The notes below the pieces were generated by a model. That model ran no database searches, was not told the origin of the DNA, and saw only the letters and a program-made list of their open reading frames with translations. From a bacterium (GTDB lineage Bacteria; SAR324; NAC60-12), in contig CBDDTI010000745.1 of NCBI GenBank assembly GCA_965233585.1, forward strand, positions 480,001 through 544,000: a DNA stretch of 64,000 bases, written 5' to 3'. A program made the position numbers and the translations under genes. Shown one piece after another: positions 20,156 to 60,691 of the stretch (position 1 is the stretch's first letter; every line of letters begins with the position of its first letter).

Positions 20156-21130
20156 ATGGAACAACAAGACTTTGACTTTTCTAAGTGTCTTTCCTTTGAA
20201 GACAAGAAAGCCAATTTGTTGTTAAGCCTTCAAGGTCACAGGTCAAAATATAAACGATTGGCATTGTCTCCGATACGTTATGCAGGTGGCAAAAGTTTGG
20301 CAGTTGGCTATGTGATAGAGGAACTTCCTCAAGTCAAAAGAATCATCTCTCCATTTTTTGGTGGGGGCAGTGTGGAAATTGCCATTGCCCAAAAATTAGG
20401 TATTGAGGTCATTGGTAGTGACATTAACATAGACTTGGCGAATTATTGGCATCATCAAATCAATGAACCTGCAGTACTTTATGAAGGACTAAATAATCTT
20501 GAACCCACTAAAAAAGAATATAATCGTGTCAAAGAAATTTGCAAATTACATAGAAAAGGTCAACTTGAATTGTCTAAGTTAGACCAAGCTGTTTATTTTT
20601 TCTTCAATCATAATTTGTCCTATGGACCTTCTTACATAGGTTGGGCATCAAATGTTTACTTGAATGAAGGCAAGTATCAAAAAATGCTAGAAAAGGTAAG
20701 AGATTTTGATGCGACTATTCAAGTTACTTGTGAGACTTTTGAAGTCATGTTTCAAAAATACCCAAATGACTTTTTCTATTGTGATCCTCCTTACTTTCTA
20801 AAACAAGATGATTCAACTAGCCAAATGTTTGCAGGAATTTACCCAGAACGTAATAATCCTTTTCATCATAAAAATTTTGACCATGAAAAACTGCGAGATT
20901 TATTAAATCAACATCAAGGAGGCTTCATTGTTTCTTATAACGATTGCTCAAAAAGTAGAGAGTATTATAAAGACTATACTTTAAAGTATCCTTCTTGGCA
21001 GTACACGATGGGGCAGGGAGAAACCAGAATCTCAAAAATTCTAGGAAACAGAGATATTGAAAACAATCATTCTCATATTAAAAAATCACACGAAGTACTG
21101 ATACTTTCCTCATTGGAAGCTCTCCGATAA
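20156..21130 (+). CDS. DNA adenine methyltransferase (Dam/D12 class)
   Basis: RYAGGKS, motif I SPFFGGGSV, motif IV YCDPPY, SYND. Confidence 0.92.
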   Translation: MEQQDFDFSKCLSFEDKKANLLLSLQGHRSKYKRLALSPIRYAGGKSLAVGYVIEELPQVKRIISPFFGGGSVEIAIAQKLGIEVIGSDINIDLANYWHHQINEPAVLYEGLNNLEPTKKEYNRVKEICKLHRKGQLELSKLDQAVYFFFNHNLSYGPSYIGWASNVYLNEGKYQKMLEKVRDFDATIQVTCETFEVMFQKYPNDFFYCDPPYFLKQDDSTSQMFAGIYPERNNPFHHKNFDHEKLRDLLNQHQGGFIVSYNDCSKSREYYKDYTLKYPSWQYTMGQGETRISKILGNRDIENNHSHIKKSHEVLILSSLEALR

Positions 21131-24737: not shown

Positions 24738-24819
24738 GCGAGAGTGGCGGAATTGGTAGACGCACCAGATTTAGGATCTGGCGCCGCAAGGTGTGGGAGT
24801 TCGAGTCTCCCCTCTCGTA
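24738..24819 (+). tRNA. tRNA-Leu(TAG)
   Basis: Acceptor GCGAGAG/CTCTCGT plus discriminator A, D-arm GGCGGAATTGGTAGACGC, anticodon arm CCAGA-TTTAGGA-TCTGG, long variable arm, GTTCGAG T-loop; CCA not encoded. Confidence 0.97.
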
Positions 24820-25392: not shown

Positions 25393-26040
25393 TTATTTGC
25401 ATTCAACAGTTTGACCAGACTTATTTAATAGTTCCTTCCAATTTTCCATATGATGATTTTTAATTTCTGTTGAAGATTTTGCATCATTGATTAAGTTCTT
25501 AGTATACGTATCTAAAAATATTTTATAATCATCTATAAATCTCAAATAGTATTTAATGCTCATTAAAATACCATTAGCAATAATATCAATATTTTGAGTC
25601 ATTTTAATCTCCAAAATCAAATCATTTACCTCATTTTCAATTTTCTCATTTGCAAATCCATTTTTAAAAGTAGTCAAAATGTAGTAACGATCTACTTGAA
25701 CATTTTCTAATTTTTTGACAATATCCAAAATCAAATCTTTTGTAATAGGAATATTGTGCTTGATCTCAATGATTTCAAAAGGATTATCTTCGTAATCATA
25801 GATTTCTATATCTCCAAAGCTGTGTTTATCAGAGGCTGTATGAACTTCTAAAGGGATTAGCTTTTTGTACTTATATCTGGAGAGAACTGGAATTAAAATT
25901 TCATAAATAGAATAAATTGCAATCACAGGTAATCTTGAACTGGTTTTATTGCTAAAGTGTTTATCTAGCATTTCAAGAACCCCGTTAATATTTAAAGCCT
26001 CTTTAAGTTCTATTTTCTCAAGAGATTTAAAATTTTTTTC
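25393..26040 (-). pseudogene. Restriction-endonuclease-like PD-(D/E)XK nuclease, 5'-truncated by IS1
   Basis: GDIEI...IEIKH motif, very AT-rich; the frame is open from 26040 (EKNFKSLEKIELKEALNINGVLEM...) up to the IS end and hits TAG inside the IS terminal repeat. Confidence 0.65.
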
Positions 26041-26800
26041 GGTATTGTTAAACTATAAGTGATATGCGATATTAAGTTCATTTAATTGAATTGATAGTCA
26101 TGGTGTAGCAATGAAGTCGTGTCCTAGATGTGAAAGTGAGAAGATGGTTAAGAATGGTTTTTTATATGGTAAACCGAGGAGGCGTTGCAATGCCTGCAAC
26201 TATCAATATACCAAGTCCTATCGTGGTCAAATCTCACCACAGATCAAAAGAAGAGCATTAGAGTTGTATTTGGAGGGTCTTGGTTTCAGGTCAATCGGTC
26301 GTTTGCTGAATTGTTCTCATGTTTCAGTTTATAATTGGGTCTGTAGTTTTGGCGAACAGCTCAAGGCATTAAGAAAGGACACAGACATTGAAATTATGGA
26401 AATTGATGAAATGCACACCTACATCCAGTCAAAAAAAACTACTGCTGGCTCTGGATTGCTGTTGATAGATGTGGGAAGCAATTTATCAATTGTGTGCTTG
26501 GAAACAGAGACTCAAAAGCCTGTAGGCATTTATGGGACAAGGTCAAGGAAACAAAACCTCTTCAGGTGATGACTGATCACTGCAAGGCTTACAAACAAGT
26601 CATTCCCAAAGAAATTCATACATGTTCCAAGGCAGAAACATACACGATAGAAGGGTATAATTCTCTCTTGAGACATTTCTTGGCAAGAATGAGAAGGAAA
26701 ACCAAATGTTACAGCAAGTCTCTTAAAGCATTACAATATTCTGTTCTTTTGTTCATGGCAAAACGGAATAATCAGCTATCACTTATTACTTAACAATGCC
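26041..26800 (+). mobile_element. IS1-family insertion sequence, 760 bp, apparently intact
   Basis: IRL GGTATTGTTAAACTATAAGTGATA, IRR reverse complement GGCATTGTTAAGTAATAAGTGATA; insA/insB ORFs; second copy at 60026. Confidence 0.95.
26111..26793 (+). CDS. IS1-family transposase InsAB via -1 frameshift
   Basis: Zn finger CPRC..CNAC, HTH, EIDEMHTY; A8C at 26431-26439 links to NYCWLWIAVDR...MTDH...IEGYNSLLRH. Confidence 0.9.
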
Positions 26801-26822
26801 TATATTTTTAAGGAGACAAACA

Positions 26823-27503
26823 ATGACTGATGAAGAATTAAAAGAGCTGGTTGCTTCTAATGCAAAGGCAATCGCAGAGCTGACAAAGAAGCAAGAAGAA
26901 AATGCCAAACGACAAGAGGAAAACAGCAGGCAGTTGGAAGAACTGACAAAAAAGCAAGAAGAAAATGCCAAACAGCAAGCCGAAACCACTTTGCAACTTC
27001 AAGAACTCAGACCAGCAGTTGCCAGCATGATGCGGGGCATTCAGAAGATGGAAAACTTCATCAGCAATACTTCAGAGATTTTAGAAAATCGTCTGCGCCG
27101 TTCTGTGGAACAAGTTATAGAAAAAAATGGTTTCATTGAAATTGGTGGCATTCGCTACGACGAAGTGGAACAAAACCTCAAAGGGAAAGATAATGGCATC
27201 ACGGCTCAATATGACCTCGTACTGTTCAGTAAAACAAAGCATCTGCTTTTGATAGAAGTCAAACGTAAGCCTCATGTTAAGGATTTCCAACAAGTGTTTC
27301 GGCAGAAAGAGACCTTCCCTAAATTGTTTCCAAGTTATCAAGACTATACAATTCACTGTGGTTTAGCTGGAGAAATCTTTTATGAGGAACTCATCAGTGA
27401 GGCAGAAGAAGAAGGCATTTATCTTTTTCAAGAACAAGCGGGAGAATTACAGGTCATTACTTCTTCTTCGCTGCAGCTACAGCTGGAGGCAATAGAATCC
27501 TGA
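26823..27503 (+). CDS. Coiled-coil plus PD-(D/E)XK nuclease-fold protein (DUF3782-like)
   Basis: RBS AAGGAG before ATG 26823; 21-aa-period repeat ELTKKQEENAK; QYDLV...IEVK; FPKLFPSY, GLAGE, GIYLFQ. Confidence 0.75.
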   Translation: MTDEELKELVASNAKAIAELTKKQEENAKRQEENSRQLEELTKKQEENAKQQAETTLQLQELRPAVASMMRGIQKMENFISNTSEILENRLRRSVEQVIEKNGFIEIGGIRYDEVEQNLKGKDNGITAQYDLVLFSKTKHLLLIEVKRKPHVKDFQQVFRQKETFPKLFPSYQDYTIHCGLAGEIFYEELISEAEEEGIYLFQEQAGELQVITSSSLQLQLEAIES

Positions 27504-27529
27504 AAATTCGTTTTCTGCTAGGGAGAGGT

Positions 27530-27739
27530 TTGCAAATGGTTCTCACCAAAACATGAACTGAAGAGCTTGGTTCGTATCTTTTACAGACCAAAGCAGATGA
27601 AGTAGAGGTAATTTGTCCTTCTCACAAAAGCACCTCCAAAGAACAACAACAGAGATATAGAACAAGTCTAAATGAGCAAGTAGAAGAAGTTTTTAATGAA
27701 TTTTTGGATCAACGAATTTCAAGGAAAAAAGAAAGATGA
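27530..27739 (+). pseudogene. C-terminal fragment A of a DUF3782-like paralog
   Basis: LTKT*TEELGSYLLQTKADEVEVI aligns with ISEAEEEGIYLFQEQAGELQVI; the frame ends at TGA 27737-27739, overlapping the rpn ATG. Confidence 0.6.
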
Positions 27740-28626
27740 TGCGATTTTTAGACATGAAGACAGATTATGCCTTCAAGATGGTGTTTGGCAGTGAGCAGAA
27801 CAAAGACATTTTAATCAGCTTGCTCAATTCTATTGTTCACTTTGAAAATGACCACAAAATCAAAGACTTAACTTTGCAAGACCCCTACAATCTGCCTTTG
27901 TTAGAGGGCATGAAAAACTCCTTTGTAGATGTCAAAGCAAGGTTAGACAACGGCAAGTTAGTCATTATTGAGATGCAGGTGCTGAAACATGAAGGTTTTG
28001 AGCAACGAATCCTTTACAATGCCTGTAAGAATTATTCTGCACAACTCCAAGAAGGAGACCCCTACCAGCTCATCAATCCTGTCATTGCTTTGAACTTTGT
28101 CAATTTTGTCATGTTTGCAGAAAATGAGCAGCTGATTAATCACTTTCAGTTATTAGAAAAAACACTTTTCACCCGTTATTCTGGAGACATTGAACTGATT
28201 TTTGTAGAATTGCCAAAATTCCAGAAAAGATTAGAAGAGTTGCGAGAATTGAAAGAGCAATGGATTTATTTTGTCAAAAATGCAGAACTGCTGCATGACA
28301 TTCCAGAAAATCTTGATTCGCACATCCAAAAAGCATTGGTGCAAGTTAATACTGCTGCAATGACACCACAAGAATTGGAGAGAATCTATAAGCGGAGAGA
28401 ATTTTCTGTCGTCATCAACAGTGTTAAACATCAGAGCTTTCAAGAAGGCAGAGAGGAAGGGCTTGAGAAAGGCAGAGAAGAAGGTAGAGAAGAAGGGCTT
28501 GAGAAAGGCAGAGAAGAAGGTCTTGAGAAAGGAAAACTTGAGATTGCCCACAAAATGTTGGCATCTGGCACCGATTTAGAGACTGTTTGCCATTTGACAG
28601 GACTCACCAAACAACAACTTAAATAA
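27736..28626 (+). CDS. Rpn family recombination-promoting nuclease / putative transposase (PDDEXK_2)
   Basis: DYAFKMVFG, DVKARL, IIEMQ, FVELPKF, C-terminal EEG repeats, TGLT end. Confidence 0.93.
   Translation: MMRFLDMKTDYAFKMVFGSEQNKDILISLLNSIVHFENDHKIKDLTLQDPYNLPLLEGMKNSFVDVKARLDNGKLVIIEMQVLKHEGFEQRILYNACKNYSAQLQEGDPYQLINPVIALNFVNFVMFAENEQLINHFQLLEKTLFTRYSGDIELIFVELPKFQKRLEELRELKEQWIYFVKNAELLHDIPENLDSHIQKALVQVNTAAMTPQELERIYKRREFSVVINSVKHQSFQEGREEGLEKGREEGREEGLEKGREEGLEKGKLEIAHKMLASGTDLETVCHLTGLTKQQLK
28444..28540 (+). repeat. 12-bp-period coding repeat (EGRE/EGLE/KGRE) in rpn
   Basis: GAAGGCAGAGAG, GAAGGGCTTGAG, AAAGGCAGAGAA and variants, about 8 units. Confidence 0.85.
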
Positions 28627-28666
28627 TAAACTCACTTATGAAGCGTCAGACAATGTAGTGCTGTAA

Positions 28667-28845
28667 CTGAACGATTTTGGACAACTGCTTAAAAAAAGAG
28701 AAAGTTTTGTCAAGATTTTCAAAGATTACGAAGGGTTTCAGGTTCATCTGGGATTAGCAGAAGAGACTCTTTGTGAGGAGCTTTTGACAAAAGCTGAAGA
28801 GCTTGTGTCTATCTTTTGCAGACTCAAGCAGATGAGATAGAAACG
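28667..28845 (+). pseudogene. C-terminal fragment B of a DUF3782-like paralog
   Basis: LNDFGQLLKKRESFVKIFKDYEGFQVHLGLAEETLCEELLTKAEEL, frameshift, VYLLQTQADEIE; aligns to the C-terminus of 26823-27503. Confidence 0.75.
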
Positions 28846-28909
28846 TCATTTTTCAACTCGTCTTTGACATCTGTGCCTCTTTTTTACGTTTTAACCTCAA
28901 ACTAAAAAT

Positions 28910-29112
28910 GTAGAGGTCAAAAAAATGACATTGACCGGATTTTAAAACAAAAGCAAACCTTCCCTGTTGTGTTTCCTCACTTCAAAAATTTTACCTTTCA
29001 TTCAGGATTAGCCAGTGAATCTTTTGACAAAGATTTGATGCAAGAAGCCAAAGCCAACCAGATTTACCTAATGCAAGAAAAAGCAGGAGTCATTCAAATC
29101 ATTGCTACTTAA
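28910..29112 (+). pseudogene. C-terminal fragment C of a DUF3782-like paralog
   Basis: VEVKK, frameshift in an A-tract, NDIDRILKQKQTFPVVFPHFKNFTFHSGLASESFDKDLMQEAKANQIYLMQEKAGVIQIIAT*. Confidence 0.8.
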
Positions 29113-29150
29113 TAGTTTACTCTCATTCCTTCCCCCATTCACTACACATG

Positions 29151-30413
29151 CTACATACGAAAACTTTTGAGTGTTTTTGAATTGAATGACTCCTTGTCTT
29201 CGTATGCCTGATTGAGTCTGTCCATACAAGACCTAAAAACCTTACCGACAGCAGATGCGGGGTGGATTCTGTGGTCATGGTTAAAATTGACCAAAAACGT
29301 CATATATTCTCCAAATTTCTCTAGCTCTTGAAAATAGAGATGAATCAAAGCAACCAATAAAGTTGCTCGCATGTAGGAAGCAGGGTTGAGTTCAGGCAAA
29401 ATCTCTTTTAAAAGATTCAATGTTGTTCTGAGGTCTGCCTCTGCCTCTTTTTTAGAGCCTTGCTCCATGAACAATTCTGCACGAATGAGCAGTAAAAAAA
29501 TCAGCTTTCTTTTCTCTTTAATATTTTGTGAAAGTTCAAAACACAAAGTGTGAGCCTCTATTGCAAATTGATAGGCACAAACAGCACTCTGAAGGTCACG
29601 TTGGTCTGAAAATAAGTTTTCTTGTATCCCTTGAATTTGGGACTCTCTTTGAGAATACTGACCTGTCCACTTTTTTGTAAATGCTTGTAAATAAGATTCC
29701 CAACGGATTGAAGGAATATCTTGGTAATCTTTTTTAAATAAAAACCAAGAGTCTGTTGCAAACAAGCATTGAGGACACACCAAAACTCTCAAAAAATTAT
29801 AATTGCAAAAATCAAAATCTTTGATGGCTTTTAAGTAAACAGGAATCCCAAAAATATTTTGACCTGTCAGGATAGACTTCACCCGAAGTTTCCAATAAAC
29901 GACATTTTCAGATTGACAAAGAGGACAAACCACATATCTTGGTATCAAGGAAGATAAAGTACATGGTGGCTTTCTGATGGTTTTGGCAATAAAAAGCTCT
30001 GGGTTGAGAATGCGGGGGACGCCTTGTTCTGGGTGAACATATTGCCGAAAATGCAGTTCAATCAAGAATGTATGACCTTGATGGTTTTTAATGTTGGCTA
30101 CTCGTGTAGAAATGATTTCATACCATTCTTGTTCTAAATCTTCTGAATCAGGAGTTTTAGCAAGTCGGATTTGTACAACAGACTTGCGATTTAACACTTG
30201 TTTGCAAATCAAAACACACGCCTCCCTTGACAACTGAACGCAGATAGCTTTTGCCTTTATCGCATTGTAAAAAACTTGTGTTGGAATAGATTCTACATCT
30301 TGAAGGTTATCCCAAATTCTCTGTTGCTTGGCGTCCAATTCTGATTGATTAGAGCTTAAGCTCAGCTTGATAGAATCCTTTTTATTTTGTCCCATAAAAT
30401 ACTCTTTTTGCAA
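29151..30413 (-). CDS. DUF2225-like protein (two CxxC pairs plus helical/TPR-like region) with N-terminal extension
   Basis: VVCPLC...VLVCPQCLFA, followed by helical repeats. Confidence 0.6.
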   Translation of the reverse strand: MQKEYFMGQNKKDSIKLSLSSNQSELDAKQQRIWDNLQDVESIPTQVFYNAIKAKAICVQLSREACVLICKQVLNRKSVVQIRLAKTPDSEDLEQEWYEIISTRVANIKNHQGHTFLIELHFRQYVHPEQGVPRILNPELFIAKTIRKPPCTLSSLIPRYVVCPLCQSENVVYWKLRVKSILTGQNIFGIPVYLKAIKDFDFCNYNFLRVLVCPQCLFATDSWFLFKKDYQDIPSIRWESYLQAFTKKWTGQYSQRESQIQGIQENLFSDQRDLQSAVCAYQFAIEAHTLCFELSQNIKEKRKLIFLLLIRAELFMEQGSKKEAEADLRTTLNLLKEILPELNPASYMRATLLVALIHLYFQELEKFGEYMTFLVNFNHDHRIHPASAVGKVFRSCMDRLNQAYEDKESFNSKTLKSFRM

Positions 30414-60025: not shown

Positions 60026-60691
60026 GGTATTGTTAAACTATAAGTGATATGCGATATTAAGTTCATTTAATTGAATTGATAGTCATGGTGTAGCAATGAA
60101 GTCGTGTCCTATCGTGGTCAAATCTCACCACAGATCAAAAGAAGAGCATTAGAGTTGTATTTGGAGGGTCTTGGTTTCAGGTCAATCGGTCGTTTGCTGA
60201 ATTGTTCTCATGTTTCAGTTTATAATTGGGTCTGTAGTTTTGGCGAACAGCTCAAGGCATTAAGAAAGGACACAGACATTGAAATTATGGAAATTGATGA
60301 AATGCACACCTACATCCAGTCAAAAAAAACTACTGCTGGCTCTGGATTGCTGTTGATAGATGTGGGAAGCAATTTATCAATTGTGTGCTTGGAAACAGAG
60401 ACTCAAAAGCCTGTAGGCATTTATGGGACAAGGTCAAGGAAACAAAACCTCTTCAGGTGATGACTGATCACTGCAAGGCTTACAAACAAGTCATTCCCAA
60501 AGAAATTCATACATGTTCCAAGGCAGAAACATACACGATAGAAGGGTATAATTCTCTCTTGAGACATTTCTTGGCAAGAATGAGAAGGAAAACCAAATGT
60601 TACAGCAAGTCTCTTAAAGCATTACAATATTCTGTTCTTTTGTTCATGGCAAAACGGAATAATCAGCTATCACTTATTACTTAACAATGTC
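60026..60691 (+). mobile_element. IS1-family element, defective copy (666 bp) with 8-bp target duplication
   Basis: Matches 26041-26800 apart from a 94-bp deletion in insA and a C>T at the penultimate base; CTTAAATT at 60018-60025 and 60692-60699. Confidence 0.95.

Follow-up and report, generated by a model that had tools for sequence, protein, structure and literature searches.

Start-less and frame-broken gene tails around an rpn gene in a SAR324 bacterium: probable remnants of lost paralogs of a coiled-coil PD-(D/E)XK nuclease family

Partial copies of genes are encountered in several settings in bacterial genomes: orphan C-terminal modules of Rhs/CdiA polymorphic toxin loci arise by displacement of resident ends, phase-variable hsdS shufflons rely on inverted repeats and a site-specific recombinase, and pseudogene remnants of expanded paralog families occur in genomes rich in insertion sequences (IS). 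Here, a locus with features of each is described in a 64,000-nucleotide (nt) stretch of DNA, referred to below as the window, from a bacterium of the SAR324 lineage NAC60-12 (GenBank assembly GCA_965233585.1, contig CBDDTI010000745.1, positions 480,001 to 544,000). In this window, an intact gene for a protein of 226 amino acids (aa), with an N-terminal coiled coil and a PD-(D/E)XK nuclease domain, is followed by three fragments, A, B and C, each of which resembles only the 3' end of a gene of that family, and an intact gene of the Rpn family (rpn) lies between A and B (Table 1). The available evidence makes it likely that three separate paralogs of this multi-copy family, formerly neighbours of the surviving copy and of rpn, have left A, B and C behind as dead 3' remnants.

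Two families of nucleases that have been described previously are relevant to this locus. Passages of Hartmann et al. (eLife 2016, PMC4786415) describe a prokaryotic PD-(D/E)XK endonuclease family with N-terminal coiled coils, the coiled-coil segments of which are grouped by Pfam as DUF3782. The intact gene of the window is similar to that family in the long N-terminal helix and the C-terminal PD-(D/E)XK fold that are predicted for its product, but differs in that the protein matches no Pfam model, PF12644 (DUF3782) covering in that account the coiled-coil segments only, and in that in the lineage of the window the family has undergone an expansion, with several subfamilies and many copies per genome. 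Regarding rpn genes, passages of a PNAS 2023 article (PMC10400941) report that small C-terminal proteins translated inside the gene block the full-length toxin, that extra tail-only copies are located downstream of some rpn genes, and that the repeats of four amino acids within RpnL/RpnS are hypervariable in number; according to a suggestion of its authors, such recombination events may be initiated by Rpn itself. The present locus shares with this Rpn/RpnS/RpnSs arrangement a PD-(D/E)XK nuclease gene followed by tail-only homologues, and its rpn contains 12-nt (4-aa) repeats of the same type at 28442-28537. On the other hand, the tails in the window belong to the coiled-coil nuclease family and not to rpn, start codons are missing from A and B and the frames of B and C are broken, and none of the tails comes from the subfamily of the intact copy.

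The fragments were detected by two approaches, namely a tblastn search of the 64-kb window with the 226-aa product of 26823-27503 as the query, and a family profile, built from 30 members (194 positions), with which all 3035 stop-to-stop pieces of the window's six frames were scanned. By tblastn, fragment C was recovered at 28927-29109 (44% identity over 61 aa, expectation value (E) 4.6e-15) and fragment B at 28667-28801 (42% over 45 aa, E 3.0e-8). Fragment A (27557-27622, 50% over 22 aa) was found at E 0.34, the best unrelated match being at E 0.023, and is accordingly not significant against the intact gene alone. The profile retrieved the intact gene at E 1e-79, C at 3.8e-27 (profile positions 132-193 of 194), B at 8.7e-15 (positions 132-176, with its out-of-frame end at 0.23) and A at 0.0099 (positions 175-194), and it returned no N-terminal or core remnant of the family among the six-frame pieces of the whole 64 kb. 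Fragment A is counted as a family tail because its DNA repeats the end of B, with 83.7% identity over 49 nt (27558-27606 versus 28794-28841, E 1.8e-7) on either side of rpn. An earlier note, made from the letters of this DNA, had pointed to three co-oriented variants of the C-terminus only and to A and B as DNA-level direct repeats flanking rpn, and both observations are borne out; all three fragments lie on the plus strand in the orientation of the intact gene. The same note had placed the beginnings of B and C at or just after the catalytic EVK motif, which is roughly correct in that the in-frame homology of both begins at profile position 132 (about residue 152); in C, the V-E-V-K itself (28910-28921) is in one frame and the remainder in another, the switch occurring at a run of seven A residues (28919-28925).

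The intact gene, against which these fragments are to be compared, carries an AAGGAG sequence (26811-26816) eleven bases before its ATG and a 63-nt tandem duplication (26876-27001), with K/E/Q-rich repeats in the coiled coil. An AlphaFold (AF2) model based on a 13-sequence alignment, with a mean predicted local distance difference test (pLDDT) score of 79.5, comprises one helix (residues 3-102) followed by an alpha/beta domain, and when this model was compared with the PDB by Foldseek, nine matches at E ≤ 0.001 were obtained, led by XisH (2inb), VC1899, the Can2/Card1 nuclease domains and AF1548, with NucS/EndoMS next (E 0.004-0.02); all of these matches are PD-(D/E)XK folds. In the 13-sequence alignment of the family, D131 and K147 are invariant and E145 is nearly so. 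The intact protein reaches the cut-off of no Pfam or NCBIfam model, PF12644 being unmatched even at E ≤ 1, and PADLOC gives it no defence-system assignment. PF12644 is carried by the distant homologue P0015 only, P0018 and P0026 matching it at E 0.47 and E 0.17, respectively. A search of 1.84 billion representatives with the family profile yielded 2761 proteins at E ≤ 0.001, including 1186 at E ≤ 1e-10, and this coiled-coil PD-(D/E)XK family is thus widespread and functionally uncharacterised. In the model, the fragments cover only the helix 152-168 plus the later strands and helix, all of which follow the catalytic strand in the fold, and for this reason they cannot be nucleases.

Comparison with other members of the family indicates where the fragments come from. 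The tail of C is 92% identical (55/60) to full-length P0016 and 78% to P0169, but 44% identical to the intact gene beside it; for B, the identity is 60% to P0170/P0171 and 42% to the neighbour, and A is nearest to the ends of P0017 (60% identity), P0168 and P0018. Since each fragment is nearer to a member of another subfamily than to the adjacent intact gene, these alignments identify A, B and C as apparent ends of three different paralogs, and not as diverged copies of the end of their neighbour; the divergence of B and C from the intact gene (42-44% aa identity) is saturated. The multi-copy family counts 41 proteins at E ≤ 1e-10, and the close relatives are few, are located on few contigs and are split into subfamilies. 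Contigs of 1,073,512 and 830,719 bp carry six to seven family members each. The two members of the P0016 cluster come from two contigs, the longer of which measures 620,666 bp, the length given also for the contig of the window's own protein. P0006 and P0169, each the single member of its cluster, are on a contig of this length as well, and presumably lie elsewhere on the window's own contig. A tblastn search against plasmids gave no match.

The fragments also show the kinds of damage that are expected of remnants. The frames of A and B hold no open reading frame (ORF) of at least 30 aa starting with ATG, GTG or TTG. An in-frame TGA (27554-27556) stands in fragment A in place of the AAA of B, and the frame of A is open until a TGA at 27737-27739 that overlaps the ATG of rpn (ATGA), 39 codons past the usual end of the family; by our own arithmetic, the chance of this open stretch is about 0.07 at the local base composition. 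A search with this open frame for a parent protein carrying the extension gave 16 candidates, none of them at E ≤ 0.01, and a former operon of the parent gene of A with rpn is conceivable. Relative to A, one nucleotide is missing from fragment B near 28803; the frame is shifted there, the original frame subsequently running into a stop. Beyond 28841, B resembles neither A nor the family, and its last codons are missing. About 4-5 codons are missing from C relative to P0016, and the only ORF of this fragment is a 47-aa frame with a GTG start (28969-29112) that reaches the natural stop. The possibility of read-through or frameshifting from the intact gene into A was ruled out, as the frames differ and a stop intervenes, and that of B and C forming one gene was ruled out by the stop, the unrelated 68-nt spacer and the frame breaks.

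It might be argued, by analogy with RpnS/RpnSs, that the full-length nuclease is regulated or inhibited by the tail-only peptides, for which the tail-only small proteins of a PD-(D/E)XK toxin reported in the passages of PMC10400941 would be a precedent, and C indeed retains its 47-aa ORF up to the natural stop. However, A and B lack an in-frame start, B is frame-shifted and cut at both ends, no Shine-Dalgarno-like sequence was recognised by eye ahead of the GTG of C, and the single intact copy in the vicinity is of a different subfamily from the tails; a role of this kind is therefore considered very improbable.

Fragments A and B could alternatively be viewed as a footprint of the arrival of rpn, i.e. 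as a target duplication created by the insertion of a segment carrying rpn into the tail of a single B-type gene. The 49-nt direct repeats with 84% identity that flank rpn, as well as the overlap between the stop of the A frame and the rpn ATG, would be in agreement with such an event. Nevertheless, what lies upstream of A is a complete subfamily-1 gene with its own stop and not the 5' part of a B-type gene, and Rpn genes are described in the 2023 article (PMC10400941) as not autonomously mobile. Counted by eye, the A/B repeat contains seven substitutions in 15 aligned codons, of which four are synonymous and three non-synonymous; this count leans towards two once-functional paralogs over a duplication at the arrival of rpn, the sample being too small to decide. 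Altogether, we attach very little probability to the insertion scenario.

The earlier note had put forward two interpretations, the first being that the fragments constitute a reservoir of silent cassettes, in which stored alternative tails are recombined onto the expressed gene and change its C-terminus. This idea draws on the fact that the fragments are co-oriented, clustered and divergent variants of one region, with a recombination-promoting nuclease gene among them. The sequences themselves offer little opportunity for such an exchange: stretches of exact DNA identity shared by the intact tail with A, B or C do not exceed 8-9 nt, the fragments are not preceded by any conserved block that could serve as a junction, and homologous (RecA-type) exchange needs about 20-30 nt or more. 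Furthermore, because all the pieces are co-oriented, exchange would delete the intervening DNA, rpn included, and would not shuffle it. The frames of B and C are broken, A spans only the last ~22 codons, and, judging from the model, the piece to be swapped would not be a separate module, as helix 152-168 and strands 176-212 amount to half of one nuclease fold. No protein of an invertase or integrase family was found among 26 proteins of the window scanned with Pfam, a selection of its ORFs that includes 10 from the cluster and its flanks (the cluster gene products, fragments B and C, and the ORFs on either side) and 16 selected elsewhere; within the cluster, Pfam recognised only the IS1-family transposase and rpn.

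Evidence from the rest of the family leads in the same direction. For 30 family members (435 pairs), identity in the core (residues 80-150) and in the tail (residues 151-213) is closely correlated (Pearson 0.946), and not one of the 435 pairs is discordant in the manner expected of swapped tails, a discordant pair being one with at least 70% identity in one part and less than 55% in the other. The eight subfamily-1 proteins (P0001-P0008) are 91-98% identical downstream of the coiled coil, tail included (mean 94%, 28 pairs), whereas their N-terminal coiled coil spans 23 to 81 aa, and three leader types are common to subfamily-1, subfamily-2, B-type and C-type cores. Tails that are concordant, coiled coils that vary and leaders that are mosaic thus point to the 5' end, and not the 3' end, as the place where diversification and exchange in this family occur. 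Considering these observations together, a cassette reservoir is hardly credible, and this first interpretation is not supported. The hsdS shufflons, with which the locus shares partial copies of the variable part of a gene near the expressed gene, differ from it in the same respects, as the pieces in the window are all direct and no recombinase family was recognised among the proteins scanned.

The second interpretation of the earlier note, a decaying tandem array, fits the damage, the missing starts and the origin from separate paralogs. That note had regarded random breakpoints, decay and an absence of chimeric alleles in reads or relatives as indicative of ordinary pseudogene debris, and this is largely the picture obtained here, with 5' limits of fragment homology that differ (at about codons 144, 152 and 192), with decayed frames and, as far as the proteins of relatives are concerned, with no chimeras. 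It is envisaged that a former cluster of paralogs, with rpn among its members, was situated in a rearrangement-prone stretch after a tRNA-Leu gene, and that the 5' parts of three copies were removed, either by deletions (illegitimate or between short repeats) or by a rearrangement linked to the IS. The intact family copy and rpn would have been spared as damage to them would be selected against, and the fragments would be without function of their own and would not be donors for the expressed gene. A precedent for the deletion step is found in P0179 (61 aa, on the 1,073,512-bp contig), a subfamily-2 gene from which about 85 codons lying between two K-E-T sites have been lost in frame; it shows that short-repeat deletions leave tails in this family. 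The locus resembles the pseudogene remnants of expanded paralog families in that truncated, frame-broken and start-less pieces of a multi-copy family lie beside an IS and a tRNA gene, but differs from them in a bias towards the last third of the gene and in the near coincidence of the in-frame starts of B and C.

This bias is among several points that weigh against deletion in a paralog array as the full explanation. What is left in all three fragments, as in P0179, is the last third of the gene and nothing else, and the 64 kb contain no N-terminal debris; if deletions fell uniformly at random, pieces that are longer, or that come from the 5' part, would remain more often. Fragments B and C enter in-frame homology at one and the same profile position, and each fragment starts about 35-70 nt past the end of the preceding element. 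In addition, residues that are near-invariant in the family (F165, F169 and G180-L181-A182) are kept in the fragments and there are few stops, so that, from their sequences, the fragments would be either young or constrained. The former tandem array is moreover reconstructed from the DNA of the window and the proteins of relatives, and is not itself seen.

The last-third bias, the shared start of B and C and the 35-70 nt spacing keep alive another history, namely the displacement of tails. In this scenario, an incoming copy, on one occasion together with rpn, would recombine with the resident gene via shared 5' leader or coiled-coil DNA, would join illegitimately on the right and would push the tail of the resident downstream; successive replacements would in this case be recorded in the stack C, B, A, without reuse of the tails. 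Such a process would account for the survival of tails only, each of them about 35-70 nt after the preceding stop or element end, and for the fact that the three tails come from different subfamilies, and the leaders that are mosaic across subfamilies indicate that 5' exchange between paralogs occurs. However, B lacks its own 3' end, so that the copy displacing C must already have been incomplete, and deletions in a tandem array give the same layout. Displacement is consequently regarded as unlikely. A more elaborate version by analogy, which is equally doubtful, is that the tails record repeated gene replacement with joins just past the catalytic E-x-K codons, in a turnover similar to that of Rhs/CdiA and possibly driven by the nuclease or by Rpn, and that the tail of C, with its 47-aa ORF, could be an RpnS-like inhibitor. 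The co-oriented stack of 3' ends behind a full-length gene is a likeness to the Rhs/CdiA orphans, but the window has no homology block before each piece, and each piece would, according to the model, be part of one fold and not a separate toxin domain. Neither was any gene found between the pieces that might be an immunity gene, the gap between B and C being 68 nt and a convergent DUF2225-like gene following C.

Loci related to that of the window were also searched for in genome contigs. With a first alignment, 15 pattern matches were obtained and none was confirmed; with a second alignment, three out of 33 pattern matches were distant loci in metagenome-assembled genomes (MAGs), in a collection from which the clade of the window is absent. 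In the stretches around these three loci, tblastn found no rpn like that of the window and no second family copy or tail. In one of them (L003, 2751-3111, from a Sulfurimonas MAG), a single distant family copy is present in two adjoining pieces in different frames and appears to be frame-shifted.

Table 1. Features of the paralog remnant locus and its surroundings, in positions of the window.
Feature	Positions	Strand	Remarks
tRNA-Leu gene	24738..24819	+	ARAGORN; Rfam tRNA 56.6 bits; left landmark of the variable stretch
192-aa ORF, family not recognised	25393..25971	-	second of two minus-strand ORFs; ~29% GC patch versus 37.5% in the window
IS1-family insertion sequence, copy 1	26041..26800	+	ends 22 nt ahead of the ATG of the intact gene; without target-site duplication
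Intact gene, 226 aa	26823..27503	+	N-terminal coiled coil and PD-(D/E)XK nuclease domain
Fragment A	27551..27625	+	last ~22 codons of a B-type paralog; without start codon
Rpn-family gene, intact, 296 aa	27736..28626	+	between fragments A and B
Fragment B	28667..28841	+	codons ~152-208 of a B-type paralog; without start codon; 3' end gone
Spacer between B and C, origin not recognised	28842..28909		68 nt; no similarity found in window comparisons or profile search
Fragment C	28910..29112	+	C-type paralog tail that retains its natural stop codon and C-terminus
DUF2225-like gene, convergent	29151-30413		Pfam; downstream of fragment C
IS1-family element, copy 2	60026..60691	+	blastn/tblastn; flanks carry an 8-bp target duplication

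The window consists of chromosomal DNA with a guanine-plus-cytosine (GC) content of 37.5%, and includes gyrB, dnaN, der, fmt and holA. After the tRNA-Leu gene, the order is two minus-strand ORFs, the IS1-family element, the intact gene, A, rpn, B, the 68-nt spacer and C. The terminal inverted repeats of IS copy 1 are 26041-26064 and 26777-26800, and Pfam recognises HTH_23 and DDE_Tnp_IS1 (9.1e-10) in its two overlapping frames. The two copies of this element are 99% identical, copy 2 lacking 88 nt that correspond to 26127-26214 of copy 1. The absence of a target duplication at copy 1, when copy 2 possesses one of 8 bp, suggests that at least one IS-linked rearrangement touched the spot beside the intact gene. 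With an IS copy devoid of target duplication, a low-GC patch and an adjacent tRNA-Leu gene, the setting of the locus is an unstable one. Both minus-strand ORFs after the tRNA-Leu gene are without family matches; the 192-aa ORF at 25393-25971 has no match in Pfam, NCBIfam or PADLOC and none among PDB sequences. A D...E-x-K-like stretch can be discerned in it by eye, and for this reason the ORF may encode another nuclease, of foreign origin.

The assignment of rpn is supported by PDDEXK_2 (PF12784; 6e-48, positions 2-218 of 229) and by TIGR01784 (160.5 bits versus a cut-off of 52.1, positions 1-271 of 273), and residues 233-280 match a PADLOC model labelled 'putative invertase' (8.4e-8). Scans for promoters and terminators gave results at chance level (eight promoter-like sites versus 6.9 expected and one terminator-like site versus 2.5), and in the Rfam scan the tRNA was the sole match. 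In the interval from the end of fragment C to that of the convergent DUF2225-like gene, there is a 34-nt inverted repeat (29085-29118 and 29161-29194; 76% complementary, with a 42-nt loop), which may be a shared terminator. Upstream of the locus, a D12-class adenine methyltransferase is encoded at 20156-21127 (PADLOC MTase_II, 1.4e-91), for which a partner endonuclease was not recognised among the few adjacent ORFs that were scanned.

If the fragments are indeed ordinary remnants of lost paralogs, this locus would matter mainly for annotation, in that the three stretches ought to be marked as paralog remnants and not as genes or cassettes. Its analysis has nonetheless drawn attention to an uncharacterised family of coiled-coil PD-(D/E)XK proteins, with 2761 cluster representatives, that has expanded into subfamilies in this lineage, and of which the variable part is the coiled coil at the N-terminus (23-81 aa, the leaders being mosaic) and not the tail. 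This variation in the length of the coiled coil recalls the length-tuned helices of Rpn and of type I restriction enzymes, and shows where functional study of the family should look.

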